Source: Candidatus Lernaella stagnicola (lineage in GTDB: Bacteria > Lernaellota > Lernaellaia > Lernaellales > Lernaellaceae). From it: a stretch of DNA of 64,000 nt. Location of the stretch: contig JAVCCK010000020.1 in the NCBI GenBank assembly GCA_030765525.1, forward strand, positions 177,286 through 241,285, read 5' to 3'. This document shows, piece after piece, positions 17,664 through 63,975 of the stretch. Position 1 is the first letter of the stretch. Each line of letters opens with the position of its first letter. The notes beneath the pieces are model-generated. The model had not been told where the DNA came from and did not search any database. It was given only the letters and a program-made list of their open reading frames with translations. The position numbers and the translations under genes are program-made.

Positions 17664-20600
17664 ATGTGCAAGCTCCGTTTCGCCCTTGTCGTACTCTGTA
17701 TTCTTTCCTTGTTTGCTATCCAGATTAATTGTGGCGGCTACGATAAAAATGCGGCTACATTGGATTCTCCCACGGGTGACGACGACACGCCTTTAGCCGA
17801 CGATGACGACGACGATGATGACAACAACGACGATGACAACGACGACGATGATGACAACGACGATGACAACGACGATGACGACAACGACGACGACGATGAC
17901 GATGACGACAAGGTTCTAATCAATGCCGGCGGTGAGGGCTACCATTACGACCAGAGAGATTATTTCCCCGACCGCCAATTCGATCCGCAGGCAGGCTACG
18001 GTCACATCATGGCGTCGGCCGTCTATTTCGAAGATGACGATATCGGCTTTGACAGTGGACCGATCCTGGACAACCAGTGTTACTACGCGGCAAATCCCTC
18101 CACGCTGTTCGATGGCGACGATCCTTTTGATTTTGGCGATACGGAATTCACGCGGACGGCCCTAACGCCGGTCGAGGTGACGGCGCCGTTGTTGTACCGC
18201 GTGCGCGTCGAAGAAAGCGGATCGTACCTGCTGCGCCTTTATTTGATGGAAGTGTTCGCCCACGAAGCGGGGCAGGTTGTTTTCGATATCCGGATCAACG
18301 AAACGACGGTTTTGGCCAACGTGGACCTCTATGCCCAGGCTCAACGCTTGCATGTGTTCGTGTTAACTTTCGCGACCGACGTGATCGGGTTGGATATCGA
18401 TGTGAGGATCGAGCCGAAGCCGACCAATCTCTTCCCGGTTCACGTGGCCGCGATTGAGGTGACGCCGACGCCCGAGGGGCTTGGAGAGGGGCCGGAAGCG
18501 CCGGAGGAACTTGTGGCGCGCGCCGGTTACGACCAGGTGGGATTGCAGTGGCTGCGCGACGAATATCCCCTGCTGGCCGGGTACCGTATCTACCGCGACG
18601 GCTCGCCCCTCAACGCAATCGTTCAACCACAACCATACACGGTTGACCCGTGGTTTGTGGATGAGTCACCGGTGGCGGGCGTCGCCTATTCGTATCAAGT
18701 TGCGGCGGTGGATGTGTGGGGCATCGAGAGTGATCTTTCTACGGCTGTCGTAGTAACCCCGCTGGCCGAGACGGCCTCGACGCTGCCGGTACATCACGTG
18801 ACGATCAGCCCGGAGAATCTGTCGACGCTGAATGCGCATCCCTTTGAAGAGATTTGGGTGGATGCGGCGTACGATCGCGCGGGCCTGAATTTCGAAGAGG
18901 CGGGAATTCGTTTTCGCGGGTCGAAGAACCGGTACTTCGCAAAAAATGCGTACCGCATTCGCCCCAAGAACGACGACCGCCGTTTCGTACTTAACACATC
19001 GCCGGTGGACTCCACGTACGTGCGCAACCGGATTTTGTACGACCTGTTCAACGAATATACGGATATTCCGGCGGCAGGGTACGACTTCGTGAATTTGTTT
19101 ATGAACGATCGTTATATGGGAGTGTACGGCGACCTGGAGGTTTACGACCACTATTGGTTAACGGCCGCTGGCTGGAATCCGAACGGTTGCTTGTTCAAAG
19201 CGGTCGACCTGTGGAGCGAAGACCCTTTGGAAGCGTGGGAATTGAAAAACGGCCCCACGAGTTGTTGGTCCGAACTGGTTGATTTTACTACCTCTGTGGA
19301 GCAAGCACCGCCCGAGCAGGCGGCGGAAGTATTTGCACGTTGGGTGGATGTGGACGCGTTCATCGATTGGTATGCGATTATGGTGCTGAGCGGCAACGAA
19401 GATTTCTGGGCGGTCAATCACTACGTGTACCTGGATCCAGAGCATGGTCGTTGGCGTTACATCCCTTATGACCTGGACACAACGCTGCAGGGCTTCCGGC
19501 CGGATTATCAAATCGGCGCCCATTGGGACAAGGGCGAGCCGTACATCAACCCGACCATCGCGCTGTTTCACGAGGTGGATCATTTCCGTTACGCCTACGC
19601 ACGGCGGATGATGGAACTGCGGGCCGAGTCGTTTTCGCCCGCGGGGCCGCTCGCCCAATGGGCAACCGAGTGGCGGGCGGATCTAGAGGACGAGACGTCC
19701 CGCGATTTCCAATGGGCGACAGCGGTGTGTCACGACTTGTTCGATGCCGGTTTTGACGCGATTGCCCAGCATCTGCAAATGCTCGCAGGGCCCGGGATTG
19801 CGGACGAAATCGCGCAGTTTATGCCGTCGCTGGATGTTGTGGAATTCCATGAAATGCAAACGAATAACGGGTCAACCTACGCGGACGAGTACGGCGAATT
19901 CGATGCCTGGGTGGAGATTCACAATGAAGGCCGGGCCACGATGCACCTCCTCGACCTGTCGTTGACCGATGATCCGGATATGCCGCGCAAATGGGTACTG
20001 CCGGAATTGCGCCTGGCGCCGGACGAAGTTTTTGTGATTTGGCTTGACGGCCAATCCGAACAGGGGGAAGGGCACGCGACCTTCTCGGTCGAAAACAGCG
20101 AGGGCACGTTGTATCTGTACGACTGCCCGTTTAACGGCGGCGGCTTAATCGACTCGCTCCGGCACGCAGCTATGCCGGCAGATTTTTCTTGGTCGTGGAA
20201 CGTGGTCGCCGGTCAATGGGAGTTGACCGACGCGCCCACGCCCGGCGTCGCCAATGACGTGACAACGAACCATGACCCAAAGATCATCTGGGTGGATAAA
20301 ACACCGCGCTTCCCGGGGGCCGGGGATACCATTTACATACTGGCCGAGGTTTTCGAGGAAGATGGCGATCCCCTCGCCGTTGCCGTGGAGTACGAGACTA
20401 ATAAGGTGTCACGTACGACCGTCGACATGGCTGACGACGGCGAGCATATGGACGGCGCGCCCGGCGACGGCGTGTTCGGCGGTCAGTTGCCGACGACTCC
20501 GGCGCATCATGATATTGTTCGGTATTACGTTACTGCCGCCGACGGCCGAGGCGGGGTCGCAACCCGTCCGGCGGCGGCTCCCGCAGTGAGGCTGAAGTTT

Positions 20601-21068
20601 CTTGTCGGGCTGCCGGCCGTTTTCATCAACGAAGTGCTCGCCGAGAATGCAACGACGATTGCCGACGAGGCGGGCGAATTCGACGATTGGTTCGAGCTTT
20701 TTTACGCCGGCGAGGAAACCGTGTTGCTCGAAGGATTCAGCTTGACCGACGACGCCGGCGAACCCGATCAATGGCTTGCTTCCGGATCGATGTTCATGTA
20801 TCCGGGCGAGACAACGCTTTTTTGGGCGGACAATGACGAAGACCAGGGCGAAACCCACACGAATTTCAAGCTTAGCAAGAACGGCGAATACCTGGGCCTT
20901 TACTTCGAATACGGCGACGAGTTTTTTGTCGTGGACGAAATCGAGTGGGGCCGGCAAGCGACCGACGTAAGCTTGGGCCGCAACGGCGACGGCGCCGACG
21001 AGTGGGTGTATTTCGAATCGCCCACGCCCGGCGCGCCGAATATTCCCATCGAGCGCCGGAACCATTGA
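17664..21068 (+). CDS. CotH-kinase-family protein with lamin-tail domains; lipoprotein with poly-Asp/Asn linker
   Basis: Signal peptide plus lipobox (IQINCGG) from ATG 17664 (GGGGAGG RBS); ~45-residue D/N tract; CotH-like core (NLFMNDRYMGVYGDLEVYD); lamin-tail-domain segments (FINEVLAENATTIADEAGEFDDWFELF). Confidence 0.6.
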   Translation: MCKLRFALVVLCILSLFAIQINCGGYDKNAATLDSPTGDDDTPLADDDDDDDDNNDDDNDDDDDNDDDNDDDDNDDDDDDDDKVLINAGGEGYHYDQRDYFPDRQFDPQAGYGHIMASAVYFEDDDIGFDSGPILDNQCYYAANPSTLFDGDDPFDFGDTEFTRTALTPVEVTAPLLYRVRVEESGSYLLRLYLMEVFAHEAGQVVFDIRINETTVLANVDLYAQAQRLHVFVLTFATDVIGLDIDVRIEPKPTNLFPVHVAAIEVTPTPEGLGEGPEAPEELVARAGYDQVGLQWLRDEYPLLAGYRIYRDGSPLNAIVQPQPYTVDPWFVDESPVAGVAYSYQVAAVDVWGIESDLSTAVVVTPLAETASTLPVHHVTISPENLSTLNAHPFEEIWVDAAYDRAGLNFEEAGIRFRGSKNRYFAKNAYRIRPKNDDRRFVLNTSPVDSTYVRNRILYDLFNEYTDIPAAGYDFVNLFMNDRYMGVYGDLEVYDHYWLTAAGWNPNGCLFKAVDLWSEDPLEAWELKNGPTSCWSELVDFTTSVEQAPPEQAAEVFARWVDVDAFIDWYAIMVLSGNEDFWAVNHYVYLDPEHGRWRYIPYDLDTTLQGFRPDYQIGAHWDKGEPYINPTIALFHEVDHFRYAYARRMMELRAESFSPAGPLAQWATEWRADLEDETSRDFQWATAVCHDLFDAGFDAIAQHLQMLAGPGIADEIAQFMPSLDVVEFHEMQTNNGSTYADEYGEFDAWVEIHNEGRATMHLLDLSLTDDPDMPRKWVLPELRLAPDEVFVIWLDGQSEQGEGHATFSVENSEGTLYLYDCPFNGGGLIDSLRHAAMPADFSWSWNVVAGQWELTDAPTPGVANDVTTNHDPKIIWVDKTPRFPGAGDTIYILAEVFEEDGDPLAVAVEYETNKVSRTTVDMADDGEHMDGAPGDGVFGGQLPTTPAHHDIVRYYVTAADGRGGVATRPAAAPAVRLKFLVGLPAVFINEVLAENATTIADEAGEFDDWFELFYAGEETVLLEGFSLTDDAGEPDQWLASGSMFMYPGETTLFWADNDEDQGETHTNFKLSKNGEYLGLYFEYGDEFFVVDEIEWGRQATDVSLGRNGDGADEWVYFESPTPGAPNIPIERRNH
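17800..17910 (+). repeat. Imperfect GAY/AAY trinucleotide tract encoding poly-Asp/Asn
   Basis: Runs of gacgat/gacaac codons visible directly in the DNA. Confidence 0.8.
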
Positions 21069-21217
21069 CGAAAGAGGGTGTCGCAAGATAAAGGGTTGCG
21101 ATACCGACCCCGGCGGCGAGCGCAAGCGATCAAGCCGACCATATACGCAATACGAATCATCCATTCATCGAAGAAACCACCAGGGCACCCGTGTGCTCGC
21201 ATCCAAGGGGGACTTCG

Positions 21218-21496: not shown

Positions 21497-21498
21497 TG

Positions 21499-30795: not shown

Positions 30796-30987
30796 ATGAT
30801 TTTCGGCATCAACTGGATCTGGATTGCCGTTGTGTTGGCGGTTGTGGTCGTGATTTTGGCGATCGTGACCAAGCGCTCGGACATCATCATTATGCTGGTT
30901 GTCGTCGGCCTGGGGCTGTGGGTGCTCTCCCACGTTCACGTGTGCGGCGTGCCGGCCGGAATCCCCTTCGCAGGCTTCCTACTGTGA
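30796..30987 (+). CDS. Small hydrophobic membrane protein
   Basis: 63 aa, two TM helices; GGGGAGG RBS before ATG 30796; the upstream in-frame extension was rejected. Confidence 0.35.
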   Translation: MIFGINWIWIAVVLAVVVVILAIVTKRSDIIIMLVVVGLGLWVLSHVHVCGVPAGIPFAGFLL

Positions 30988-31706
30988 CAGGAAAGTGGGC
31001 GTTCATCGCGGTGCTCGCGGCCTTTTTGGTGGCGACGGCGCTATGGTTGAACCGACCCTCCGCGAACGCCGAGGAAAGCCTCGTCGATTGTGCGCGGCAG
31101 GAAAGCCTTCGTAATTTCAGCACCTTCAAAGACTACACTTGCCGCATCCAGAGCCATCGCAAGGTCTGGAAGACCGACGGCGTCCTGCATAAGCGCAACT
31201 ATCTCCTGAAAAAGTTGCTGGTGCTGCAACCGGACAAGCGGCGCGAAGTTTTCGTGGAAGGCACCTTGAACGGCGAAAAGGCCGAGGAGAAGGATTTCAT
31301 CTTCGAGCGCCTGGGTTTCGACAAAGGGCTCGACATTTCCGACATCGAGTGCTTTCGCCCCGACGCCGCGGGCAGGTTCGCCTTCGAAGAGCGGCCGGAT
31401 CGAGTCATCGCGTTTCGGTCACTGGCGCCCGGCAAGACCAAGCTGCAAACCGGCAAAATTAACCTCGCGTCCGACTCCTGCCGCGTCGTGCGTATAAGCG
31501 GGCGCTTCGTCCACCGCAAAATCGTCAATAACGAGGTCGATTTCGTCACGACCTTCCGGCCGGTCGCCAAAAGCGTCTGGCTACCCAGCGACATGTCCGT
31601 TTCAGGAACGGTGAATCTGGGGATCATCAAGCGGCGCATCGAAGCGAAAAAAGAGTTTCTCGACTACCGCCTGAACGTGGGCCTGACCGCCGCCGATTTC
31701 GACTGA
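30984..31706 (+). CDS. Hypothetical exported protein (possible LolA-like fold)
   Basis: GTG start overlapping the upstream stop (GTGA); N-terminal signal peptide; no catalytic motif. Confidence 0.45.
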   Translation: MTGKWAFIAVLAAFLVATALWLNRPSANAEESLVDCARQESLRNFSTFKDYTCRIQSHRKVWKTDGVLHKRNYLLKKLLVLQPDKRREVFVEGTLNGEKAEEKDFIFERLGFDKGLDISDIECFRPDAAGRFAFEERPDRVIAFRSLAPGKTKLQTGKINLASDSCRVVRISGRFVHRKIVNNEVDFVTTFRPVAKSVWLPSDMSVSGTVNLGIIKRRIEAKKEFLDYRLNVGLTAADFD

Positions 31707-31732: not shown

Positions 31733-32104
31733 CTACCGCGTCGCCGGAGAAACGGTGACCGTGTGCTGCGGTGAGTCCGGGTCGCAAGTGACGGTCAGAA
31801 TTTGCATGACGCGCGGGAAACCGATGCCGTCCAGGATGATCTCGCGGCCCTGGTCATCGTGGATTGACGGGGCGAAATCGGTGTCATCGTCGTTATTATT
31901 GTCATTATCGGTGTCGTCAGCGTCATTATTCTCGTCATCGACCGCGTCGTCGTCGTCATCGATTGTGTCGTCGTCATCATCGAAGACACCGCTGTTGTCG
32001 ACGAAATCCTCGTCATCCGAGGACTCCTTATCGCGAGCGAGGCCGGATACGAGGCATGCGATCAAAACGAAAAGCAGCAGGAAGCGGGATTATTGGACTT
32101 TCAT
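31733..32104 (-). pseudogene. Poly-Asp/Asn lipoprotein gene interrupted by an in-frame TAA at codon 5
   Basis: ATG 32104 with GGGAGG RBS, then AAA GTC CAA TAA, then in-frame SRFLLLFVLIACLVSG (signal peptide and lipobox) and a D/N tract; the only ORF-track start is TTG 32065, which would delete the signal peptide. Confidence 0.45.
31880..32030 (-). repeat. Imperfect trinucleotide tract encoding poly-Asp/Asn
   Basis: gtcatc/gttatt codon runs on the plus strand. Confidence 0.75.
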
Positions 32105-34063: not shown

Positions 34064-34522
34064 GTGATGAAGCAGCGGTGGATTATTCCGGCTTTTGTCT
34101 TGATTGCGGCGGTGGCTTGTCTACCATTTGCCTGCGGTGACGACGATGATGACGATGGCGGCGGACCGGCGGCCGGCTCCGACGTGTGCAGCGATTTGGG
34201 CGACTTGCCGGTTAGCTCAGGGACGATGACCGGCGGATTCACGTTCGACGGCGCCTCGGGTAGCTTCCCGTTGTCGATCACACTCGACGGCGATAACCGT
34301 CAATTGACCGGCACGTTGAGCTTCTCGGATTCCGGCAGTTCCTATTCCGGCAATTGCGCGGGGTATTGGGATTTGGACGGTTACCTGTTCGGCTCATGCG
34401 GCGCGACGAACGGGTCGGATTTTATCGATATCGATATTTTTGGAGACATCGGCGAGAACGGTTCGTGCGGCGCTTGGAATAACGACTTCGGCCAGTCCGG
34501 AGACTACTGGGTCGCACGTTAG
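34064..34522 (+). CDS. Small lipoprotein with poly-Asp linker
   Basis: Signal peptide with lipobox (LPFACG) followed by DDDDDDGGG; 152 aa. Confidence 0.55.
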   Translation: MMKQRWIIPAFVLIAAVACLPFACGDDDDDDGGGPAAGSDVCSDLGDLPVSSGTMTGGFTFDGASGSFPLSITLDGDNRQLTGTLSFSDSGSSYSGNCAGYWDLDGYLFGSCGATNGSDFIDIDIFGDIGENGSCGAWNNDFGQSGDYWVAR

Positions 34523-36632: not shown

Positions 36633-37418
36633 CTATTCGAGCGTTTCGTCGGTCAAGAAGCGTTCGGTAAAGTAGGCGTCGTCAATCTTCACATCCACTT
36701 CGTATTCTTCGAGCCTGAGTATGGTGGAGGCGCCCTTTAGCAGGTCGCTCATTTTCGTGTCTTTGGCGACCCAAGTGCCGTCGGAGCGCTTCTCCACGCC
36801 CGAGACTTCGAGCCGTTTCCAGAGCTTGCCCTTCTTATCGTAGAACTCGCCTTTGATGGGCAGGAAGTTGTCCTTGCGCACCCAGTAAACCAGTTTCGAG
36901 TAAATTTCGTCGTCGAGATTCTGCGGGACGGTCTCCACGACGTAGCAATCCTGGCCGTCGAGAACAGCATCGGCGAGGCGCTGATGGGCTCCTTGGTCCG
37001 GATCGTGGGTTTGCAGGTCGGCGTAGGCAAAGGTCGAGCCCATGAAATTGCCCGACTTATTCGATGACGTGATCCGCTTGACCTTCTTGAGCGCCGGCAG
37101 GAAGAGACGCTGATCGTCGTCGGCGTTTTTCTGCTCCACGATCAGGAACTTAGTGCCGCGCACATCCGGCGGGGCGAGGAAGGTCGTGACGGTGTGGCGC
37201 AAGCCGTTCTTTTCCTTGGTGCGCATTTTGATCTCGCGCACGCGCTCGCGGCCGTTTTTGTCGATGAGTATCATCTTGGCCGTCGTTTCGGCCGATTGGC
37301 TCTCGTTCTGTTTGGCCATCTTTTCCACGATCGCCTTGCCGTCGAGATCCGCCGCCGACACTACGGCCACCGCGATCACTAACGCCAATCCCACGCCGAG
37401 CAGTAAACGCAAACGCAT
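36633..37418 (-). CDS. Outer-membrane lipoprotein-sorting-protein-like (LolA-like) secreted protein
   Basis: Signal peptide from ATG 37418 (GGGAGGA RBS); composition and length fit the LolA-like family; assignment by resemblance only. Confidence 0.5.
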   Translation of the reverse strand: MRLRLLLGVGLALVIAVAVVSAADLDGKAIVEKMAKQNESQSAETTAKMILIDKNGRERVREIKMRTKEKNGLRHTVTTFLAPPDVRGTKFLIVEQKNADDDQRLFLPALKKVKRITSSNKSGNFMGSTFAYADLQTHDPDQGAHQRLADAVLDGQDCYVVETVPQNLDDEIYSKLVYWVRKDNFLPIKGEFYDKKGKLWKRLEVSGVEKRSDGTWVAKDTKMSDLLKGASTILRLEEYEVDVKIDDAYFTERFLTDETLE

Positions 37419-37539
37419 CAAGCTTCCTCCCGGTTTCATTATCGGCTGCATCTTGGCACGTCGGCCGCGTCGGCATCAACCCGCGTGCGCGAACCGGGCG
37501 GTCTTGCCTACCGGCTTCGGGCTGCTATCCTACTGCCCG

Positions 37540-47260: not shown

Positions 47261-47578
47261 ATGGGTATGTGGAAGTACACCTTGCTGCTTTGTGTTTCGC
47301 TCGTTTTGGCCCTGAGCATGTTCGCCGCGTGCGGCGATGACGATGACGACGACGACGGCGGCGGTGGCGGCTATACGTGCGCCGATGCGTGCAGCGTAAT
47401 TTATGACGACTGCGGCGCGGTTCTGGCCGTTGACGGCTACACGTTGTCCGAAGCGGAATGTGTCGAGGGCTGCAACGACGAGGGCGGCATCGGCAGTTGT
47501 GAAACGGCTTGTCTGGACACCTATGCCGAAGACGAAGACTGCGACGCGTTCGCCGATTGCGCGTACAACTGCTTCTAG
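47261..47578 (+). CDS. Small acidic Cys-rich secreted lipoprotein
   Basis: Signal peptide with lipobox (MFAACG), DDDDDDDGGGGG linker, then ~80 aa with 10 Cys and high Asp/Glu. Confidence 0.55.
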   Translation: MGMWKYTLLLCVSLVLALSMFAACGDDDDDDDGGGGGYTCADACSVIYDDCGAVLAVDGYTLSEAECVEGCNDEGGIGSCETACLDTYAEDEDCDAFADCAYNCF

Positions 47579-50745: not shown

Positions 50746-52722
50746 GTGAATGCACGTGGCTGGTTGTTCCTGATATTGGCGTCGCTGGTGTTTCTCGTCG
50801 CCTGCGGCTGCGAGGGTGATTCGTCCGGTGACGATGGAAATCGCCCGGTCGACGATGATGATGACAATAACGACAACGATGACAACAACGACAACGACGA
50901 TTCCACACCGCCATGTCCCTGTCTAATCGAAGGGAATTGTTACGGGGAGGGTGAACCCAATCCATACGAATCTTGCTTGATTTGCGATTCGACAACGAGT
51001 CCCGACGCTTGGACCCCGGCCGACGGCGCGCCGTGCGACGACGGCAACTTTTGTAACGGCGCCGACCTCTGCGCGAGCGGAACGTGCGGTGATCATGCGG
51101 GCAACCCCTGTTCCGACGACGGCCTGTGGTGCAATGGCGCCGAGTTATGCGACGAGAGCAATCACGCATGCCTGCAAGTGAGCGTGCCAAGCTGCCCCGA
51201 CGACGGCGTTTTCTGCAACGGGGCCGAGTTCTGCAACGACGACTTCGACGTTTGCGACCGCGGCGGCGACCCCTGCGCGGCCGCCGCCGAATGGTGCGAT
51301 GAGGAAAACGAGGCGTGTCTGGCGGTTTTCTGCCGCGCCACCGCTTTTGAATCAATCGAGACCTGCGGTCGAACGCTGGTGGATCTCGAAGGCCGGCCGC
51401 AAAACGTCGAAGAATTGACCACCTGGTGCGAAATTTCCGAAGCGATATTCGCCGCTAAGAACGAGCACGCTTCACCTTTCTGGAGTTGCTGGAGCGATTG
51501 CATTTTCGAAATGAATTGCAGCGCCGATTGTTTCGAGGCGTGCCTACATCCGGTCGATCCGGGCGGCGGCTGCGGCCACATCGCCCACGAGTTGTATGCC
51601 TGCGACGTTCGCTTCGAGTACCAGTTTTTGCAGCCTCAATACGTGCCGGAATTGGACGTGATCGAGACCTGTGATTGGCTCCAGGATGATCGTTATGCGT
51701 GTTTCGATGATTGCCTTTGGTCGTATCCGTGTGCCGGCGGCGGCGGACAATACAACTGGGAGCCCTATGACCTAACTTCCTGTGTGGATTGGTGTGAGCC
51801 CAAGCCGGCGGTTGTCTTTGACGGGCAAACCGGCGCTGCGGAAATTCCCCAAGGTTCCGTGGTCCAAGTGGATGACTTCCTCGTTTCTCTTTATTTCCGG
51901 TTCGACGGCGGTCTGCCGGAAAACGGCGACTCAACGGGGATCGCCGGCTGTTTGAATCTCGGAACCGACGCCGCGGACTCGCCGGCCGGCTGGGAGTACC
52001 GCGTCGTGCGCGACGATCAGTGGTGGGGCGAAACCTACTACCTGGTGTTCGCCATGGCGGATGCGAATTCGGGCGAAATCGTGGAATTGACGTCGGAGTG
52101 GGAAATCGAAGTCGGCGAATGGCACGCGGCGATGGCCGGTGAATTATGGGGCGATGATACGACGATCATGCGCGTGGACGGCGTGTTGGAAGCAACCGAA
52201 GACCGAGACACCCGGTTGACGATGGATGACACGCCGCTCTGGCTCGGTCGGTCGTCGGACGGCCAGGGCATTCCTTTCCACGGCGCGGTCGACGAAGTGC
52301 ACTTGGGCCACGGAATTGGTGTTATGTGGTCGGACCGCACCATTGCCTGGTGGCGGCTGGATGAAGGATTCGGCGGCCTAGTCCACGATCTGGGGGAGCA
52401 CGATTTCACGGGCCAACTTGTCGGTGGCTACGAATGGATAGAACGTCCGGCGCGACATACCCTGATTAGTTCCGCCCAGGGAAATCCGAGCGCGGAGTCG
52501 GTCGGTCGAAACGCACGAATCGCGGAAGAACTGCATTACGAAAACACCGGCGGCGCCAACGGTGGGTACTACACGGACGACTTGGACGATTTGCTCGCAT
52601 TTGACCGCAATCTCACCGACGACCCAAACGTGACTTTCTTGTTCGGCGAAGCGAATTGTTCGGGTTACACGTTCAATACGTCACACGTGAATGGAAACAT
52701 TACCTTCCATATGACCGACTGA
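50746..52722 (+). CDS. Lipoprotein with Myxococcus-type cysteine-rich repeats and a C-terminal LamG/concanavalin-like domain
   Basis: GTG start with AAGGAG RBS; lipobox (LVACGC); D/N linker; four or more repeats of C..DG.FCNGAE.C; C-terminal LamG-like region. Confidence 0.6.
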   Translation: MNARGWLFLILASLVFLVACGCEGDSSGDDGNRPVDDDDDNNDNDDNNDNDDSTPPCPCLIEGNCYGEGEPNPYESCLICDSTTSPDAWTPADGAPCDDGNFCNGADLCASGTCGDHAGNPCSDDGLWCNGAELCDESNHACLQVSVPSCPDDGVFCNGAEFCNDDFDVCDRGGDPCAAAAEWCDEENEACLAVFCRATAFESIETCGRTLVDLEGRPQNVEELTTWCEISEAIFAAKNEHASPFWSCWSDCIFEMNCSADCFEACLHPVDPGGGCGHIAHELYACDVRFEYQFLQPQYVPELDVIETCDWLQDDRYACFDDCLWSYPCAGGGGQYNWEPYDLTSCVDWCEPKPAVVFDGQTGAAEIPQGSVVQVDDFLVSLYFRFDGGLPENGDSTGIAGCLNLGTDAADSPAGWEYRVVRDDQWWGETYYLVFAMADANSGEIVELTSEWEIEVGEWHAAMAGELWGDDTTIMRVDGVLEATEDRDTRLTMDDTPLWLGRSSDGQGIPFHGAVDEVHLGHGIGVMWSDRTIAWWRLDEGFGGLVHDLGEHDFTGQLVGGYEWIERPARHTLISSAQGNPSAESVGRNARIAEELHYENTGGANGGYYTDDLDDLLAFDRNLTDDPNVTFLFGEANCSGYTFNTSHVNGNITFHMTD

Positions 52723-52828: not shown

Positions 52829-54376
52829 ATGCGCACTCGTTTTCTAGCGGCCGTGATTTTGGCCCTATTTCTGATTATTCCAGCGTGCGCCGACAGCGAC
52901 AACAATGATGATGCCAGCCCGAATGCCGGTGACGACGACATGGACGACGACACATCCGATGACGACACCTTCCTTCCCGATGACGACACTACCAACGACG
53001 ACGATGACGACGACAATGACGATAACGATAACAATGACAACAACGACACTTCACCCCCCTTGCCTGAGGGCATTTACGTAAGTACCGAGGGCGACGACGC
53101 CAATCCCGGCACGCCCGATCTACCAATGCGGACGATCGAGGCGGCCCTGTCGGTCGCCGAGGCAGCCGATGTGCCCGTGCGCGTCGCCGCAGGCGAGTAC
53201 CAGGCAAGCCTCGAAACCACCGTATCGATGTACGGCGGCTACAACCCCCACAACTGGAGGCGAAATATTGCCGCCAACGAAACGACAATCGTCGGGTTGT
53301 TCGGCGTCAGTCTGTATGTGTGGGGAGGTATCGAGACGGAAACGGTCGTGGATGGCTTCTCGATTTCGGCGACCGGTCCCGCCTCCGGAGCCGCGCAGAC
53401 CGTGTTCCTTGATGGCGGCAAAATCACCTTCTCGCACAACACCGTGACCGGCCACGACGCCGCGGTCGATGGTTACGCCAACGGCGTGTCCATAAATGGG
53501 GAAGGAGATTTCCACATTCTGCGCAACCGTATCAAGGGCGGCAATTCCAGCGGCGAGTTTGCCAAGTCGTTCGGTTTGTCCATCGCCAGCCACAACGGAC
53601 AGGTCAACGTCGAAGGCAATTCGATTTACGGCGGGCGGGCCGTCGATACAAGCGAAAGCGGGCTTTCGTGCGGCATCGGCGTCGAGGCCGTGAACAGCGA
53701 AGTGTTGATTCAACGCAACGTTATCGGCGCCGGTTACGCCCAGGGCCTCTACGCGGCGTTTACCGACGGCGTGGACATCGTCGACGGTGAGGTGACGCTG
53801 GTCAATAACATCATCACATCCGGCGCCGCGGGCGGTAGCCCCGTGACGATCGCTGCCGGCATCCACACGTACGCCACAGCGCCGCCGCCGCTCATGCTGC
53901 ACAACACGATTCATCCCGGCCTCGCCCTGTATGCTTTCGCGGTACAACTCGAAGGCGACGCGACGATGATCGGCAACGCCTTGCATATTGCGCCGGGGAT
54001 TTTCGCCTCGGTGTTCGCCACCCAAGCGTCGAGCGCCGGGCGGATCGTCATCATCGGCAACAACCTGCAATGCCTCGGCTGGACATGCGTGCTCGGCTCG
54101 GTCGGCACCGATATCCCGTTGATTACCGTGCGCGGCGTCAATGCCTGCGATTGGCCGGGTTGCCTGGAAGCCCACGACAACATTTCGGAAGCGTCCGCGT
54201 TTGCCGGGATGCTCGACTTCCATTTGACGGCCACCAGCGCCCTCATCGATGCGGGCGTCGATCCGACCGCATGGTACGACGGCGACCCGTTGTACGTTGA
54301 TATCGACGGCGAGGCGCGGCCCGTCGGCGAGGGTTGGGATATCGGCGCCGACGAAGCGCCCGTCGCGGTGTGGTGA
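52829..54376 (+). CDS. Lipoprotein with poly-Asp/Asn linker and right-handed parallel beta-helix domain
   Basis: ATG 52829 with AAAGGAG RBS; lipobox (IIPACA); ~50-residue D/N tract; IYVSTEGDDANPGTPDLPMRTIEAAL start typical of beta-helix (DUF1565/pectate-lyase-like) proteins. Confidence 0.55.
   Translation: MRTRFLAAVILALFLIIPACADSDNNDDASPNAGDDDMDDDTSDDDTFLPDDDTTNDDDDDDNDDNDNNDNNDTSPPLPEGIYVSTEGDDANPGTPDLPMRTIEAALSVAEAADVPVRVAAGEYQASLETTVSMYGGYNPHNWRRNIAANETTIVGLFGVSLYVWGGIETETVVDGFSISATGPASGAAQTVFLDGGKITFSHNTVTGHDAAVDGYANGVSINGEGDFHILRNRIKGGNSSGEFAKSFGLSIASHNGQVNVEGNSIYGGRAVDTSESGLSCGIGVEAVNSEVLIQRNVIGAGYAQGLYAAFTDGVDIVDGEVTLVNNIITSGAAGGSPVTIAAGIHTYATAPPPLMLHNTIHPGLALYAFAVQLEGDATMIGNALHIAPGIFASVFATQASSAGRIVIIGNNLQCLGWTCVLGSVGTDIPLITVRGVNACDWPGCLEAHDNISEASAFAGMLDFHLTATSALIDAGVDPTAWYDGDPLYVDIDGEARPVGEGWDIGADEAPVAVW
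52891..53050 (+). repeat. Imperfect trinucleotide tract encoding poly-Asp/Asn
   Basis: gacgac/gataac/aatgac codon runs. Confidence 0.75.
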
Positions 54377-56121: not shown

Positions 56122-57276
56122 ATGATTACTTTCAAACCGATGCGAAGCCGTTGTCGACCCCTCCGTGTGTTCTGGTGGCTCGCAGTGTGGGCCATTCCCA
56201 TTCTATGCACTTGCGCCTGCTCTCCGGAAAGGGAGGAATCCATCGTGCGAGATCGCTTGACCGTCGTGACGTACAACATGTGGCACGGACTCAACCCGAC
56301 CGGACTCATCATGTTCGAGGAGCAGGAAACGACTGCCGATCGCGATCGCCGCATGCGGGGTTTCTACCACCACGTACGCGCGTTGAATCCCGACATCATC
56401 TTTCTGCAGGAAGTGAACCCGGCGCCGGGCCTGAGCCGCCGACTTGCCGCCGATCTCGGGTATGACCACACCTTCATCGTCGATAACGCGGGCGTAAAAA
56501 TCGGCGCGTTCGGGCCACCGTTCAATTTCCGCAGCGGCCAGGCCATCCTCGCCAAGCCCGATCTCCATTTGCAGGCGCTGGGCGGGACGAAGCTGTCGGG
56601 AAAATTCGGTTGGGCGGCGTGGCACAGCTCGCTGCAGTTCAGCGAGTTCCGCGACGCGGTCGCCGCGGCGGTAACCGTCAACCAGCGCCGCGTCTTGCTC
56701 ATGGGGCTGCACGCGCACCACGGCCCCGAGGCAGACCGGGAGATCCAGGAAGGGCTCGACGAGTTGGAAGCCGCGGGCGTTATCGATAGTGCTCGCCGGC
56801 AGGAAATTCTCTCCAAGTTTGCGCAAGCCTCAGTGCGACGGCGCGGGGAGTTGGAGAAAGCGCTTGCCTTTGCCTCGCGCATCGGCATGGATCGCGGCCC
56901 TGTTTTGTTCGCCGGCGACTTCAACGCGTCGCCCGACAGCCCGGAGTTGATGTGGCTCAAAAACGAGCAGCAATTTGCCTCCGTCACCGCTGATGAAGAT
57001 CCCGCTTCGCTGTTGATCACCTGGGATCACCGCCGCAATCTCAACACGCACTACTTCCATGATTTCGTCCCGGTTCACATCTTCGAGCCGGACGTCATGC
57101 GCGTGCTCAATCCACTGGTGGTGACGGGCAGTAAGCGAATCGATTACGTGTTCCATCGCGGTTTCGGCGAGTCATACCGGGTAGTCGAGGCCGGCCTATT
57201 CGGCGAAGAACTTTTCGAGGGACACTACGCATCCGACCACTTCGGCGTGTACGCGGTTTTCCATATCGAGGATTAA
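56122..57276 (+). CDS. Endonuclease/exonuclease/phosphatase (EEP) family protein, secreted
   Basis: LTVVTYNMWHG...IIFLQEV...FAGDFNASP...SDHFGVYAVF; signal peptide from M7 (ATG 56140 is an alternative start). Confidence 0.7.
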   Translation: MITFKPMRSRCRPLRVFWWLAVWAIPILCTCACSPEREESIVRDRLTVVTYNMWHGLNPTGLIMFEEQETTADRDRRMRGFYHHVRALNPDIIFLQEVNPAPGLSRRLAADLGYDHTFIVDNAGVKIGAFGPPFNFRSGQAILAKPDLHLQALGGTKLSGKFGWAAWHSSLQFSEFRDAVAAAVTVNQRRVLLMGLHAHHGPEADREIQEGLDELEAAGVIDSARRQEILSKFAQASVRRRGELEKALAFASRIGMDRGPVLFAGDFNASPDSPELMWLKNEQQFASVTADEDPASLLITWDHRRNLNTHYFHDFVPVHIFEPDVMRVLNPLVVTGSKRIDYVFHRGFGESYRVVEAGLFGEELFEGHYASDHFGVYAVFHIED

Positions 57277-58154: not shown

Positions 58155-58261
58155 CGTAGCAGCACAACTCCCTTCCCACAATTCGCTGCGGCATGCCGAT
58201 GTCTTTTGTGTTAGAAACGCAACAAATCCAGCGAACGAAACGCAGAAGGTTTCACAAAAGC

Positions 58262-59059: not shown

Positions 59060-59073
59060 AAGGGAAGGGTGCC

Positions 59074-59790
59074 ATGTCGGACACCTCGCCGCCGGTCGAA
59101 AAGAGAGGAACCGGGCGACTTTTTCTGCGCGCCGCGTTGTGGTCCGGTTTCGCCTTCGGCGCTTGGTTCCTGGGACTCGTTGCCGTACCTGGGCTCGCGG
59201 ATATTTCCGCAGCGACCGACTTCACCGACGTCATCACCTGGGAAGCCTCTCCTTTATTGGCCTTCGTTTTGGGCATGCTTGCCGTTTGCTGGGCGGCGCG
59301 GCGATGGCGGCGGGGCGGCGTCGTCGAAGTGTTGGGCGTCGTGGCCGTCAAGTGGAAGGTGGTTGTCGGCCTTTGCATCGTGACCGTGGTTGCCGTTCTA
59401 TTGCACGACGTGCTGCGCTACGCCCTCGGTTTGCCGTTGCTGCCTCCGGAATACACGCGTCTTATTCAAGCCTCGAACCACCCCATCGTGTTGTCGCTGG
59501 GTTTCCTGATCGCGGCGCCGATCTTCGAGGAAGTGTACTTTCGCGGCTTTTTCATCACGGCCTTCGGCGGCACCTGCCTGCGTCCGTGGGGCGCGGCGGT
59601 TGTCGCGGCCGCAATCTGGGCGTTTGCCCACACCCAGTACGACTTGACCTACATGCCGATCATTTTCTTAGCCGGCCTTGCCTTCGCGGGAGTGCGTTTG
59701 CTCACCGGCAGCATCGTGCCGGCTGTCGTGGCCCATGCCCTCATCAACCTGATGTCATACGTACACGTGATGTTTTTTCTGGAGCGGTGA
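59074..59790 (+). CDS. CPBP-family intramembrane metalloprotease, tandem paralog
   Basis: IFEEVYFRGFFITAF and HALINL motifs; AAGGGAAGGG RBS before ATG 59074. Confidence 0.7.
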   Translation: MSDTSPPVEKRGTGRLFLRAALWSGFAFGAWFLGLVAVPGLADISAATDFTDVITWEASPLLAFVLGMLAVCWAARRWRRGGVVEVLGVVAVKWKVVVGLCIVTVVAVLLHDVLRYALGLPLLPPEYTRLIQASNHPIVLSLGFLIAAPIFEEVYFRGFFITAFGGTCLRPWGAAVVAAAIWAFAHTQYDLTYMPIIFLAGLAFAGVRLLTGSIVPAVVAHALINLMSYVHVMFFLER

Positions 59791-59795
59791 AGCGC

Positions 59796-60488
59796 CTAGA
59801 ATCTCAACAGGCGATTCAGGTTCTTGTGCAGCCATGTTTGGCAACGCTCGAAGCCGGGATGCGCCGCCTCCGCGTCTTTGAACGCCTTGCTGTGGATGAT
59901 GCGCCGATTCCCGCCGTCGCGGGGCCGAAACAGCCAGTGCAGCATTTCGTGATACACCAGATGTTCGATCACGTATTGGGGGACCCAAGGAGCATCCAGC
60001 GTTCGGTGAACGCGGATGATATTGGTTTGGGGATCATACGATCCAAGCTGAATACCGCGGCGATTGCGGCGGCGCGGCGCCTGTCGCCCCCACGTGATTT
60101 TCGCGTCACATTGGCGCTTGAAGTGCTTCTCGTTGACCCGCGTGAAAACCGCCAACAGGTCATGATGCTCGCCCTCGGTATCGAAATGCATGACTCGCGT
60201 GTGATAGGCCTCGGGCTCGTCCACGATCTCTTGATTGGCGCGGATAAACTTATCGAGCGTGGCGCGATTGCTTTTGGCCGGCCGTTTGCAAAACGAGGCG
60301 ACCGTGCGCCAGATGCGCCGCCCGCCGTCGAGAAACATGACGTGCAGGCGCAAGGCCAGCCGGCCGTTGTCCCAGCGATAGCTGATCATCGTTCGACGAT
60401 TCGTCGTGACGGTGATGTCGACCGGAACGCCCAGTTCCCGAACCAGGTGTTCGCGCAACGCTTCGATACTCGCGGTCCGTTTCGGCAT
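59796..60488 (-). CDS. YgjP-like (DUF45) metal-dependent hydrolase / M48-family-like metallopeptidase
   Basis: C-terminal HExxH (VYHEMLHWL) in a ~230-aa protein; start at ATG 60488. Confidence 0.6.
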   Translation of the reverse strand: MPKRTASIEALREHLVRELGVPVDITVTTNRRTMISYRWDNGRLALRLHVMFLDGGRRIWRTVASFCKRPAKSNRATLDKFIRANQEIVDEPEAYHTRVMHFDTEGEHHDLLAVFTRVNEKHFKRQCDAKITWGRQAPRRRNRRGIQLGSYDPQTNIIRVHRTLDAPWVPQYVIEHLVYHEMLHWLFRPRDGGNRRIIHSKAFKDAEAAHPGFERCQTWLHKNLNRLLRF

Positions 60489-60618
60489 GGGCGTTAGGCT
60501 GCCAGAAGCCAACGCGCCGGACAAGCGGCCGGGTGACGCGATTGCGCCCGGTCGGAACACGGGATTACGTTATGGAAAAGCCACGTTGAGAGGGTTTCGG
60601 TAAATCGCGCGATGAGTT

Positions 60619-61515
60619 TTATTCGGTACCCTTCAGAGCCAGGCGCTGATTAACCCGCTTCGTGTAGAAGCCTTCCTCGTTGGGTTCGCCCAGTGCCATC
60701 GCCACGACGCCCAGGGCATCCTCGAACTCTTCGGAAGGTTTGAACTTCACCGTTAGGTTGGCGCGGCTGGAGGTCGGCTGGCTCTGATTAATGCGAAGAC
60801 TACCATCCAGCAAAAGTTCGATATGGTTGCCCTTGAGGTTGAATTCATTGACTTGAAGAGTCTGGTTTTTCAACGTCAGGCTCGCCCGGCTGGGTTCGAA
60901 GGTGAGGTCGGGGAACTTCTTGCCGACCAAATCAATATTCATGACGCGCAAGCGGTCGAAATTCAAACTTACCGTGCCGCTGTTATTGCGGCGTTGCTTC
61001 GGATGAAGACTCGCCGCCACGGCGCCGCCGATCACGCCGGCTAGGTCGAAACTGCCGAATTTGCGGGCTACTTCTTTCGTGCCGTACTTGCTCAAATTCA
61101 GGTCGACAAAATCCATCGCAACGTCGTGTATACCGCGATGGAAGCAATACGAACCGGCCACGCCGCCGTCATAGGCATATATGTCGAAATCGACCCACAG
61201 ACGTCCAAGCAGCAATTGCGTTGGGCGCAACCGCACCCGGATTTCATCCATCGTGAGAAAAACCTTGCGGCGATCTTCAGCGTCGCGCACTTGCAGACCT
61301 TTGATCGACACGCCCGTGAGCCGGAAGGGGCTCATTTCCTCGATCTCAACCCGAAAATTCCCTTGGCTCTCGATTTTTTGTACTGCGTAGGAGGTAATCG
61401 CGTCGAAGGGAAAGGTTAGATACAGGAAGATCATGAACAGGGCGATAAATAGCCCCGCGAAGCCCCAGAAGGTCTTGGACTTTAGTGCTGCAAGCCAAGC
61501 GAAATGTTTGCGCAT
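60619..61515 (-). CDS. Hypothetical membrane-anchored protein (possibly GspN/AsmA-like)
   Basis: Single N-terminal TM (FWGFAGLFIALFMIFLYL) then a beta-rich soluble region; function not recognised. Confidence 0.4.
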   Translation of the reverse strand: MRKHFAWLAALKSKTFWGFAGLFIALFMIFLYLTFPFDAITSYAVQKIESQGNFRVEIEEMSPFRLTGVSIKGLQVRDAEDRRKVFLTMDEIRVRLRPTQLLLGRLWVDFDIYAYDGGVAGSYCFHRGIHDVAMDFVDLNLSKYGTKEVARKFGSFDLAGVIGGAVAASLHPKQRRNNSGTVSLNFDRLRVMNIDLVGKKFPDLTFEPSRASLTLKNQTLQVNEFNLKGNHIELLLDGSLRINQSQPTSSRANLTVKFKPSEEFEDALGVVAMALGEPNEEGFYTKRVNQRLALKGTE

Positions 61516-61629
61516 TGCCTCTCCCACGAGTTCGGCGCATTCTATCATGTTCAGCAAGAGGCCGCAAGTTGAACGAACGCAACCACCTTTGAAATCGGAC
61601 ACCCAATGAGGCTGATAAGTTAACTACGC

Positions 61630-63975
61630 TTAAGGGCCGGTGCCCAAGGTCTCGGGGAACGAACTGTAGGTTACCGCGTAATCGTTGGGAAAGATCACGT
61701 GCATCATCCCGCTTGCATCCCGCACGATGTCGACCGAGCCGCCGTCTTCAAAATAATACCAGTGCGTCACGTTGGCCGCGGTCCACGCTCCGGTAAGGTT
61801 GGTGGCAAAAACCGGGTCGTACATCGATTCCTCGAAACCGAGGCTACCGAACAAGAAAAGGCGGCCCGCGGCATTGGAGGTCATCGCCAGCCGCGTTCCG
61901 GGCGTAATCTCGTCTTCCCAGATCTTATTGCGGACCCACGAACCCGTGACGTTGGTCTCATACACAAAGCAATGGCAGTTTTCGGTGTAGACGACGTGAC
62001 CCGCGCCGGCGGCGTCGACGGCAACGTAGACCCGGCCCGAAGCATATGACGCAGTTCCGAAAAGCTCCACTGCCCATGATGCTTCGCCTCGCTCGGCGCA
62101 GTGAAAGGCGGATTCAACATCGGCTTCTGCGATGAAAGCGATGTACACCTTCTCCGGTTGCCGCACATCGATAACTAGGTCGTAAATGTTCCAGTCGGTT
62201 TCGTAGGCCGTTTCGAAGGTCCATTCGCCGTCGATTCTAGTTCCATGAACAATTTGGTCGTTGTCGTCGGCGCAGACGAACGCAAGGTGGGGATCACCGT
62301 TGTCGTCCAACTTCATATGCGGGCGACCCCGCGTGGCCTCGCAAGGCTGCGGAACCGTTTCGCTTACCCACCCGGAGCCGGTGTCCACGGCGTAGCGTAA
62401 TTCACCGCCCAAGGCATATTCTAGATAAAGCAGATGCAGGTTGCCGCTCGGGTCGTACTCGATGGCGTAAGGTCGGGCTTCCTCCCCCAGATACTCCCGG
62501 CTCCACGCGCCGCCGTCGCGATAGGCGATGTATCCGCCCACGTCGAACTGGGCGCTATTCATCGCCACGGCGATCTCGCCGGCGGGCGAAACGGCCAAAT
62601 AGGACAACGCGATCCGCGGCCGGCGCTTTAGCATCAGTTGTTGCCATTGATCGCCGTCTTTTTCCATCACTTCCAAATACCGCGGTTCACCGCGCAGCGA
62701 ACTGAAATCGAAAACCCCGGCCACTTGGATTTTCCCGTCCGCCGTCAACTCGATATCGCTGCCGTAACCGTCGTCGATGCCCTCATGCAAATGCACACGC
62801 TGCCACCCATTGGAACGGGTGGCATAGGCTAAGTTTCCGAAATAACTGTAGTAAAACACGATGTGCGGAACGCCGCCGGCGTCCACGACGATGCTTAGCC
62901 GGTTTGTCGTGTAGAGAGAGTCATGGATGAGTTCGTGCTCCCACGTGCCCGAGGCGTTGGTCGAGTAGTAGCCGTTGCCGAATTTTCCGTAGGAGTGGAA
63001 ATGCGCCAGGTGGACCGATCCATCCGGTCCCAGCGCCAACGCGCAGTTGGCATCTTCATATTCGCCGGTATCCCAAACAACGTCGACCGACCACGTGCCC
63101 GACATCCGCGTCGCCAGACGGACCTCGCAATCGCGGTTTTGGGCGGCCACGTAGGACACGTGCACGGTATCGTCCGAGGCAATGGCGATACGGTGGCTGG
63201 CGATGTATTGCAGCGCGAAATCCAGTTGCTCGCTTACCCAAGACCCGGTCTCGTTGCTTAAGTGAAATAACCTGTCCGGATTGGTCAGCGAATATGCGAT
63301 ATGAGCGTGGCCCGCGCTGTCGACGGCCAACTGCGACAGGTCGTAGTGGTTCGTCATGGCCGACAGGGTTTCGAAACTCCAGTCACCGCCGTTCTTGGTG
63401 CCATACCGGTACACCTGATTTTGGTAGTCGAAGAGCAACAGGTGCAAAACGCCGGCGCCGTCCCGCGCCAGTTGAGGCCAGCGGGCCTGGCGATAGACGA
63501 TCTCCTCGGTGACGGTATCGCCGGAAATCGTGTGGAGGAAAACATCTTCGCCGTAGGTCACGGCGACCAATGAATCGCCCGAGGGCAGGGGAATCAGCGT
63601 GAGCGCCTCGGCGTGGTCGAATTCGCCACCCCAAACACGCTCCTCCAGCGTCTCAACGGTGTCGTTGTCGTCGTTATTGTCGTCATTGTCGTCATTATCG
63701 TCATTGTTGTCGTCATTGTTATTGTCGTCATCGTCATTGTTATCGTCGTTGTCGTCATTGTTATCGTCGTCATTGTCATTGTTATCGTCATCATCATCGT
63801 CATCATCATCGTCATCGTCATCGTCGGTAGGCGCCGGGCTCCCGTCGTCGTCGGTGCTCGTATCGTCGTCGTCCGCGGGCGACACGTCGTTGTCGTCATC
63901 GTCGTCGTCGGGCGGGCAGGCCGTCACGGCGACAAGTACGAAGCATAGAAAAAGAACTAAAAACAACGAGCGCAT
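61630..63975 (-). CDS. Large lipoprotein with long poly-Asp/Asn linker and about 11 beta-propeller-like repeats
   Basis: ATG 63975 with GGGAGA RBS; lipobox (VAVTACPP); ~85-residue D/N tract; repeated ~55-aa units G[ST]W..E.[LIV] ... [LIV]A[LIV]D..G..H[LIV].[YF]. Confidence 0.6.
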   Translation of the reverse strand: MRSLFLVLFLCFVLVAVTACPPDDDDDDNDVSPADDDDTSTDDDGSPAPTDDDDDDDDDDDDDDNNDNDDDNNDDNDDNNDDDDNNNDDNNDDNDDNDDNNDDNDTVETLEERVWGGEFDHAEALTLIPLPSGDSLVAVTYGEDVFLHTISGDTVTEEIVYRQARWPQLARDGAGVLHLLLFDYQNQVYRYGTKNGGDWSFETLSAMTNHYDLSQLAVDSAGHAHIAYSLTNPDRLFHLSNETGSWVSEQLDFALQYIASHRIAIASDDTVHVSYVAAQNRDCEVRLATRMSGTWSVDVVWDTGEYEDANCALALGPDGSVHLAHFHSYGKFGNGYYSTNASGTWEHELIHDSLYTTNRLSIVVDAGGVPHIVFYYSYFGNLAYATRSNGWQRVHLHEGIDDGYGSDIELTADGKIQVAGVFDFSSLRGEPRYLEVMEKDGDQWQQLMLKRRPRIALSYLAVSPAGEIAVAMNSAQFDVGGYIAYRDGGAWSREYLGEEARPYAIEYDPSGNLHLLYLEYALGGELRYAVDTGSGWVSETVPQPCEATRGRPHMKLDDNGDPHLAFVCADDNDQIVHGTRIDGEWTFETAYETDWNIYDLVIDVRQPEKVYIAFIAEADVESAFHCAERGEASWAVELFGTASYASGRVYVAVDAAGAGHVVYTENCHCFVYETNVTGSWVRNKIWEDEITPGTRLAMTSNAAGRLFLFGSLGFEESMYDPVFATNLTGAWTAANVTHWYYFEDGGSVDIVRDASGMMHVIFPNDYAVTYSSFPETLGTGP
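63658..63915 (-). repeat. Long imperfect trinucleotide tract (~260 nt) encoding poly-Asp/Asn
   Basis: gtcgtc/gttgtc/attgtc runs on the plus strand; longest such tract in the window. Confidence 0.8.

Follow-up and report, generated by a model that had tools for sequence, protein, structure and literature searches.

Six intact genes in a 64,000-nucleotide stretch of DNA from Candidatus Lernaella stagnicola (hereafter the window) encoded proteins in which a signal peptide ending in Cys was followed, after 1–8 small residues, by a tract of Asp and Asn (D/N), as determined by translation. The tract trait was real, specific and lineage-wide: tracts were exclusive to lipoprotein-type N-termini, recurred across unrelated proteins and related genomes, and were conserved in composition and not in sequence or length. 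On balance, we favor a reading in which selection on composition maintains the tract as a disordered polyanionic tether, and in which the tract-bearing lipoproteins form a class of their own that probably faces outward. An earlier, sequence-only reading of the window had claimed seven genes with a lipobox Cys and a D/N tract. Six of these were intact, whereas the seventh was interrupted by a stop codon, and the lipobox of one of the six, the CotH protein, was non-canonical. The genes and their predicted products were as follows.

17664..21068 (+): Malectin + CotH + two lamin-tail-domain (LTD) protein; FAIQINC followed by GGYDKNAATLDSPTGDDDTPLA plus 37 D/N; Cys codon 17730–17732; D/N-rich linker ~17733–17909, about 59 residues.
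34067..34522 (+; start also given as 34064): small secreted lipoprotein, 151 residues, MDP8223608.1; PFAC followed by GDDDDDD; Cys codon 34133–34135, tract 34136–34156, then a G-rich stretch; linker of 7 residues.
47261..47578 (+): small Cys-rich lipoprotein, 105 residues, MDP8223619.1; FAAC followed by GDDDDDDD GGGGG; Cys codon 47330–47332, tract 47333–47356; linker of 8 residues.
50746..52722 (+): Cys-rich repeat + Laminin_G_3 lipoprotein; LVAC followed by GCEGDSSGDDGNRPV plus 17 D/N (in condensed form, GCEGDSSGDDGNRPVD5N2DND2N2DND2); Cys codon 50803–50805; linker 50806–50901, 32 residues.
52829..54376 (+): right-handed beta-helix (DUF1565) lipoprotein, MDP8223622.1; IPAC followed by ADSDNNDD...; Cys codon 52886–52888; linker 52889–53047, 53 residues with 27 D and 10 N.
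61630..63975 (−): propeller-like (BNR_4-related) lipoprotein; VTAC followed by PPDDDDDD...; Cys codon 63918–63916; linker 63652–63915, 88 residues with 51 D and 19 N, net charge −52 (the longest tract).
31733..32104 (−): remnant gene; ATG at 32104; in-frame TAA at 32092–32090; LIAC-like lipobox with Cys codon 32056–32054; acidic tract ~31877–32053.

The linkers of the six intact proteins ranged from 7 to 88 residues, with a net charge of −6 to −52 and no more than one K/R. The strict lipobox rule (PS51257-type: basic n-region, hydrophobic h-region, [LVI..][ASTVI..][GAS]-C, and Cys at about position 15–35) was passed by 47261, 50746 and 61630, while 34064 (VAC and FAC) and 52829 (IPAC) passed a relaxed rule only. 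Five lipoboxes were canonical or near-canonical, and the sixth, the Q-I-N-C of the CotH protein, failed PROSITE PS51257 because of the N at −1. The CotH protein counts as a lipoprotein only by analogy with the others; a search for its homologues, directed at lipobox and taxonomic spread, found only distant relatives of the signal-peptidase-I type. An array detected by Tandem Repeats Finder (TRF) lay at 17798–17911 within the same gene. The residue at +2 was G, A or P in all six intact proteins, as the sequence-only reading had stated, and its dismissal of the E. coli Asp+2 signal also stood, as no tract protein of the window had Asp at that position. The domains that it had named were recovered by Pfam for three proteins (Malectin, CotH and two LTD; Laminin_G_3; the DUF1565 beta-helix), and the propeller was seen as faint BNR_4 matches in homologues. 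The two small tract proteins and the propeller protein itself had no significant Pfam match.

The remnant gene read MKVQ-TAA-SRFLLLFVLIAC... (MKVQ*SRF...), with the stop directly after codon 4. The residue of the gene was a 110-residue open reading frame (ORF) with a TTG start and no signal peptide, and its +2 residue was L. Sequencing error was ruled out as the source of the TAA, as the same stop was found in four independent assemblies. The TAA is a real nonsense codon within the signal peptide, and the gene is probably a decayed member of the tract class.

The tracts were far from what the composition of the window would yield. Background D+N content, measured in the 44 other window proteins, was 8.2%, and 0.07 runs of at least five D/N were expected per 20,000 residues of window composition. 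Such runs were observed in seven ORFs, all of them N-terminal after a signal peptide and Cys, and in none of the other six-frame ORFs of the window. The association of tract with lipoprotein-type N-terminus was significant by Fisher test (p = 5e-6; p = 1e-4 with the CotH protein placed among the non-lipoproteins). Compositional bias, one of the outcomes that the sequence-only reading had named as fatal to it, was ruled out by this background and by the 0 tracts in the ~44 other proteins. Single-codon slippage was likewise ruled out, as GAC and GAT were intermixed (GAT 34% within tracts vs. 37% in the background), and AAC and AAT were also mixed, although TRF did detect imperfect periodicities of 3–42 nt in the tracts.

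An assembly artefact was ruled out for four proteins, as those encoded at 47261, 34064 and 52829 and the N-terminus of 50746 were found identical in independent ENA, JGI and Logan assemblies (that of 47261 in five metagenome contigs). The exact 781-residue product of 61630..63975 was not on record, leaving the longest tract without independent assembly support. Three short-read contigs covering window ~59.7–62.4 kb (L092, L093 and L094) all stopped inside this gene, well short of the D/N tract, at 894, 597 and 598 bp, respectively, upstream of the start of the GspN-like gene that lies downstream of it. Because the tracts were specific to lipoprotein-type N-termini and identical in independent assemblies, both compositional bias and artefact were rejected.

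Exact sequence matches (e.g., to methionyl-tRNA synthetase (MetRS), MDP8223591.1, and to FeoB, PanB and GcvT) placed the window, with a G+C content of ~60%, on a 301,050-bp contig of the Ca. Lernaella stagnicola metagenome-assembled genome (MAG). This organism belongs to the phylum Candidatus Lernaellota (= FEN-1099), which has been placed beside Desulfobacterota groups E/F (PMC13248872). It was described from Ace Lake, Antarctica, and was drawn with an outer membrane (PMC9324843). The description made no mention of lipoproteins, secretion systems or acidic tracts (PMC9324843), and the D/N-tract trait is unmentioned in the Lernaellota papers (PMC9324843, PMC13248872).

Our census of Lernaella-type DNA covered ~157 kb in total and returned 16 cases of a lipobox with a tract, corresponding to ~1 per 10 kb and ~10% of genes. 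The relatives' contigs (~60% G+C) contributed two cases in L086, three in L087, two in L096, three in L098 and one in L100, in unrelated proteins. In the comparison with related genomes that the sequence-only reading had suggested, tracts recurred in unrelated lipoproteins at five relatives' loci. L086 and L087 were selected via homologues of the tract-bearing propeller protein, and L096, L098 and L100 only via a homologue of the GspN-like gene; the latter selection was unbiased toward the tract, and these loci yielded six tract cases in 58.6 kb. By comparison, 80 MetRS loci from other phyla (Planctomycetota, Gammaproteobacteria, Thermodesulfobacteriota, Bdellovibrionota and others) yielded 0 cases of lipobox plus acidic tract in 1.29 Mb. 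The best MetRS matches, 57% identical and from MAGs labeled “Deltaproteobacteria bacterium”, were also without tracts.

Homologues of the propeller protein showed what had been conserved. In those with a lipobox (P0001, P0002, P0004, P0022 and P0029), acidic linkers of 50–107 residues were kept at a globular identity of only 22–26%, and the linkers fell into two “dialects”, one of homopolymeric D/N and the other of periodic DDDxx. The keeping of linkers at such low identity and in differing dialects indicated selection on presence and composition, and not on sequence or length. More distant propeller homologues had signal-peptidase-I signals and no tract. A mirror design was found in relatives (L086 5676–7205 (−) and P0021), in which a signal-peptidase-I signal and a folded domain were followed by ~60 D/N residues and a Cys-x-Cys C-terminus, ending in “...DDAGCGC” or “...DDGGCCGC” immediately before the stop codon, with no transmembrane (TM) helix afterwards. 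Here the C-terminal Cys residues may serve for anchoring or sorting, with the same kind of spacer in front of them. In both architectures the tract lay between the folded domain and the Cys-containing terminus, as expected of a tether beside an anchor.

Lipoproteins without a tract were also present. A relaxed lipoprotein scan returned about 15–17 candidates with a tract vs. about 8 without (~2/3 tract-bearing). The tract-less cases in the window were the following.

14243..14947 (+): lipoprotein without a tract; VVGC followed by RTHVRGVALE.
37540..38961 (+): sulfatase lipoprotein without a tract; LAAC followed by DKRARLPDRN; the domain begins immediately.
38958..40391 (+): sulfatase lipoprotein without a tract; VVAC followed by QKSPPVKQTGQN, which begins QKSPPVKQ.
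56122..57276 (+): candidate lipoprotein of the endonuclease/exonuclease/phosphatase family, with no D/N tract; CAC followed by SPEREESIVRD, a short mixed-charge start.

Those of the relatives included proteins with QAPPGK or HREKPAEK after the Cys, as well as a LemA protein. In general, the residues after the Cys of the tract-less lipoproteins were neutral or basic, and the folded domain came directly, without a linker. The domains on tract-bearing proteins (CotH, lamin-tail, malectin, LamG, beta-helix and BNR-like propeller) were of typical surface or extracellular types. The division into two classes, drawn from a few cases, suggests a sorting code.

From this anatomy we infer disorder and tether behavior of the tract, sorting into two classes, and surface exposure. 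The tract proteins would be Sec/signal-peptidase-II lipoproteins of a diderm host, in which, throughout the lineage, a polyanionic low-complexity string of Asp/Asn has presumably taken the place of the segment from Cys to domain. These proteins would be laid out as the Cys, 1–8 small residues (G/S/A/P), and 6 to ~90 mostly D/N residues with essentially no K/R. Such a string is predicted to be intrinsically disordered and repelled by the anionic membrane, and as such it could serve as an extended tether, holding the binding and enzymatic domains (CotH/LTD/malectin, LamG, beta-helix, propeller) off the bilayer. The membrane-proximal ends (C-G-D-D..., C-P-P-D-D..., C-A-D-S-D...) may set the tract proteins in a sorting class apart from the tract-less ones, and the tract-bearing class would most likely be outward-facing or surface-exposed. 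We count in favor of this reading the envelope genes of the window, namely those for the GspN/AsmA-like protein, two LolA-superfamily proteins and Wzx/Wzy_C. Also in its favor are the acidic or G/D/N-rich motifs after the Cys that direct lipoproteins to the surface in Bacteroidota (PMC5080379) and in T2SS/GspN-dependent systems (T2SS, type II secretion system; PMC12802150).

A tether of this kind has precedent. El Rayes et al. (2021, 10.1101/2021.01.05.425367) reported linkers of more than 22 residues in roughly half of E. coli's outer-membrane lipoproteins and in one in eight of its inner-membrane lipoproteins. These disordered linkers were required for efficient Lol-dependent sorting, with length and disorder, and not sequence, being what counted (10.1101/2021.01.05.425367). 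The Lernaella tracts resemble the linkers of RcsF, Pal and NlpD in forming an apparently unstructured segment that joins the lipidated Cys to the globular domain, and in that Lernaella homologues conserve composition and not sequence, much as length and disorder prevail over sequence in E. coli. The same length of more than 22 residues was reached by four of the six window proteins (32, 53, ~59 and 88 residues), and the other two had only 7–8 D plus a G-run; disorder is predicted here from composition. However, the E. coli linkers are of ordinary composition, whereas those of Lernaella are near-homopolymeric Asp/Asn with a net charge of up to −52, and occur on ~2/3 of lipoproteins lineage-wide. 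We regard the tract as a variant of two known things, the disordered linkers of lipoproteins and the acidic sorting motifs that follow the Cys, rather than as a category of its own; what is new is its prevalence and its homopolymeric acidic make-up. The searchable literature held nothing bacterial on poly-Asp or Asp-rich lipoprotein linkers, and no description of the trait was found in it.

Several points weigh against the tether and sorting-class reading. Lipidation, localization and disorder are predicted here from sequence, and the host is uncultured. The census spans only ~157 kb, and a tract-bearing protein was the way in to two of the five related loci. Two of the six proteins have a tract of just 6–7 D, too short for much spacing, and one protein (17664..21068) lacks a canonical lipobox. 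The class split is based on few tract-less examples. Finally, “C-G-D-D” was described in Pseudomonas as a Lol-avoidance signal that retains lipoproteins in the inner membrane (PMC12802150), and the same motif in Lernaella could thus mean retention, not export.

The route taken by the tract proteins could be GspN/T2SS-like or LES-like (LES, the lipoprotein export signal of Bacteroidota), or it could end in inner-membrane retention. In the last case, the acidic start would serve Lol avoidance, and the lipoproteins would stay at the cytoplasmic membrane, on its outer side, with the tether reaching through the periplasm and peptidoglycan; an 88-residue extended chain could span the periplasm. Asp beside the Cys retains E. 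coli lipoproteins (10.1101/2021.01.05.425367), “GDD” and “GGG” do so in Pseudomonas (PMC12802150), and the C-G-D-D start of two window proteins, together with D at +2 in several relatives, is consistent with such a role. The known Lol-avoidance signals (E. coli Asp+2; P. aeruginosa GDD/GGG; PMC12802150) share with the tracts the acidic or Gly residues straight after the Cys. However, they are 2–3 residues long, their retention role is a misfit with the domain types found here, and none of the window proteins has Asp+2. Domains of the CotH/LTD/malectin, LamG, beta-helix and BNR-like types usually belong to proteins outside the cell or at its surface, and long disordered linkers in E. coli mark outer-membrane lipoproteins, occurring on one in eight of the inner-membrane ones (10.1101/2021.01.05.425367). 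In addition, the enzymes expected to be periplasmic, the sulfatases, were the tract-less ones. Retention as the general fate of these proteins appears quite unlikely.

The sequence-only reading had instead likened the tract to the LES, in which case the acidic residues at +3 to +6 would be an export signal read by an outer-membrane flipping machinery. The LES follows C-X-K-(D/E)2-X or Q-A-(D/E)2 in C. canimorsus and S-D-D-D-D in B. fragilis, lies at a fixed +2 to +6, is position-dependent, and requires an overall negative charge near the Cys (PMC5080379). Lernaella likewise has negative charge only a few residues away from the +1 Cys, and the LES marks surface lipoproteins with glycan-binding or enzymatic domains, which the domain types of the tract proteins match. 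The acidic run began at +3 or +4 in four of the six window proteins, similar to the SDDDD of B. fragilis. Other features differed: the first acidic residue stood at +5 in one window protein and anywhere from +2 to +9 across the lineage, whereas the LES is tied to its position; the polar or basic element (K/Q/S) was missing, with no K/Q and with S at +2 only in some relatives; the tracts, at up to ~90 residues, were 10–20 times longer; and Lernaellota is a different phylum, beside Desulfobacterota. We consider an LES-like signal an improbable explanation of the tracts.

The sequence-only reading had also pointed to two LolA-like genes among the tract genes, which were as follows.

30984..31706 (+): secreted protein with a LolA-superfamily fold, by fold comparison.
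36633..37451 (−): secreted LolA_like protein with a signal-peptidase-I type signal; Pfam PF17131/DUF1329, E 1.6e-58.

The claim was upheld for 36633 by Pfam LolA_like and for 30984 by fold, but neither gene matched a canonical LolA profile, and their neighbors were sulfatase and glycine-cleavage genes, not LolCDE. At the sequence level, 30984..31706 matched no Pfam or NCBIfam family of any kind, no match between it and LolA was obtained by BLASTP, hhalign or PDB profile, and the hhalign probability against the PF17131 protein was 0.9%. The family is small and lineage-restricted, with 12 homologues in 1.8 billion representatives. Both proteins belong to a non-canonical LolA_like/DUF1329 branch, and such LolA paralogues often carry other hydrophobic cargo (PMC11885536). 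In F. johnsoniae, LES-dependent surface exposure needs no LolA or LolB homologue (PMC11885536), and the nearby LolA-like genes therefore lend no support to an LES route. Beside the LolA_like gene lay two small paralogous Cys/His-containing proteins (~107 residues) with no family match, at 35817–36143 (−) and 36263–36583 (−).

A closer precedent than the LES, missed by the sequence-only reading, was the motif of lipoproteins that depend on the T2SS and GspN. T2SS-dependent lipoproteins of A. baumannii (InvL etc.) carry “GGG” or “ND(N/D)” at P2'–P4' in a G/S- or N/D-rich stretch of more than four residues, and the post-Cys motifs of Burkholderia and Shewanella are glycine/aspartate hybrids (PMC12802150). 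This motif is needed, though not enough by itself, for GspN-dependent surface exposure, and was proposed to join Lol avoidance with recognition by the AsmA-like GspN (PMC12802150). The window encoded a GspN-family protein, together with a partner.

60619..61512 (−): GspN-like/AsmA-like protein, MDP8223630.1; NCBIfam equivalog TIGR04411, E 2.2e-38, 132 bits vs. a cut-off of 50.
59796..60488 (−): 230-residue HExxH protein (YHEMLHW), MDP8223629.1; downstream partner of the GspN-like gene, conserved in relatives.

By this precedent, the G/D/N-rich stretch after the Cys would be the sorting motif of lipoproteins that escape Lol and are handed by the AsmA-like GspN to a T2SS or another outer-membrane exit for surface display, with the remaining tract acting as a spacer. 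The window N-termini fit the description in all six intact proteins, each with a G/S- or N/D-rich motif of more than four residues after the Cys (CGDDDDDD in two, CGGYDKN, CGCEGDSSGDD, CADSDNNDD and CPPDDDDDDND), and are alike in kind to the motifs of A. baumannii, Burkholderia and Shewanella (PMC12802150). As in the known systems (A. baumannii InvL; PulA/PulN; PMC12802150), a GspN-family gene was present. In Lernaella it adjoined the longest-tract gene, lying directly downstream on the same strand at a distance of 27 bp (61603–61629), or 117 bp from the annotated ATG at 61512. PGAP named the product GspN, Pfam AsmA/T2SSN matches were weak, and the structural model consisted of an N-terminal TM helix and a long curved beta-sheet, which is in keeping with a GspN role.

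The likeness to GspN-dependent lipoproteins was limited in length and in genetic setting. Their motifs span ~4–8 residues vs. up to 90 in Lernaella, and their GspN genes lie in gsp operons, whereas the Lernaella-type GspN was an orphan in all loci seen. The orphan GspN-like gene and the gene for the ~230-residue HExxH protein, for which no Pfam or NCBIfam match was found, formed a pair (window 59796–61512 (−)) that also occurred in L098, L100 and L101 and was never inside a T2SS operon in these loci. No T2SS core gene (GspD/E/F/G) was found in the window, nor was any within 10 kb of GspN in three relatives (L096, L098 and L100), where the gene was likewise an orphan paired with an HExxH protein. 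In the relatives' loci, GspN kept no conserved gene order with tract lipoproteins or T2SS genes, save for loose proximity to tract lipoproteins in L098. Moreover, ~10% of all genes would have to encode substrates, far above known T2SS lipoprotein sets. We rate a GspN/T2SS-type route as unlikely. About 1 kb from the GspN-like gene, we observed two adjoining, slightly overlapping genes for CPBP/Rce1-like (PF02517) intramembrane proteases, at 58193–59059 (+) and 58870–59790 (+).

A role in ligand binding was also considered, in which poly-Asp strings would chelate Ca2+, Mg2+ or other metals or touch minerals, forming an anionic brush similar to teichoic acids or a poly-glutamate capsule. Asp-rich low-complexity proteins are the classical Ca2+ and mineral binders of eukaryotes, the host lake is saline, and tracts on the products of ~10% of genes would yield a strongly anionic surface. 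However, D to N replacements, which remove charge, were freely tolerated at up to 27% N in a tract, and tract length, from 6 to 88, bore no relation to a binding unit. The trait-bearing relatives came from several unrelated metagenome samples, and the strict position of the tract beside the anchor points to topology over ligand binding. A cation-binding layer as the purpose of the tracts seems very improbable.

A wider proposal holds that the tract is a general surface-export code for most Lernaellota lipoproteins, read by a machinery that is neither the Bacteroidota LES nor a classical T2SS; we regard this as something of a long shot. Such a code might be read by the orphan AsmA-like “GspN” together with the HExxH protein conserved beside it, or by the lineage-specific LolA-fold proteins. 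If the proposal were true, the cell would be coated by a brush of poly-Asp-tethered enzymes, and further secreted proteins would be anchored by the mirror design, with its D/N tract and terminal Cys-x-Cys at the C-terminus.

How a lipoprotein comes to reside in the inner membrane, on the periplasmic side of the outer membrane or at the cell surface has been worked out in few phyla, and little of the machinery of surface exposure has been identified. Lernaella offers an extreme and easily scored form, in which a poly-Asp/Asn tether is present on ~2/3 of lipoproteins while the others have a basic, linker-less start, and thereby a natural two-class data set for predicting localization in “dark matter” phyla. 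The tracts are also ready-made sequences for reporter tests of charge-based sorting, of GspN/AsmA-like involvement and of the role of linker length. In practical terms, such tracts break short-read assemblies, confuse gene callers and bias the annotation of secreted polymer-degrading enzymes.

The tract genes were dispersed and did not form an island. The rest of the window consisted of housekeeping genes, including those for MetRS, GltX, the glycine cleavage system, acyl-CoA dehydrogenases, PanB, PurH and Feo; lgt and lspA were absent from the window. Genes at 16–2867 (+) encoded a Wzx-like flippase for polysaccharides together with a membrane protein of the Wzy_C (O-antigen-ligase-like) kind, giving weak support for a surface polysaccharide or lipopolysaccharide (LPS)-type envelope. 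A single ORF of 1071 residues at 41747–44962 (−), named GcvT by PGAP, fused serine hydroxymethyltransferase (SHMT) with the glycine-cleavage T protein (GcvT). PurH was split into two adjoining ORFs, MGS-like/IMP cyclohydrolase and AICARFT, at 48681–49370 (+) and 49383–50636 (+), and the identical split was called in independent metagenome contigs (L001). At 45303–46734 (−), where local G+C was lower (0.56), a regulator with HTH_3 and Peptidase_M78 (ImmA/IrrE-like) domains was accompanied by a small upstream partner, and this stretch may be a mobile-element or toxin-antitoxin-like remnant.

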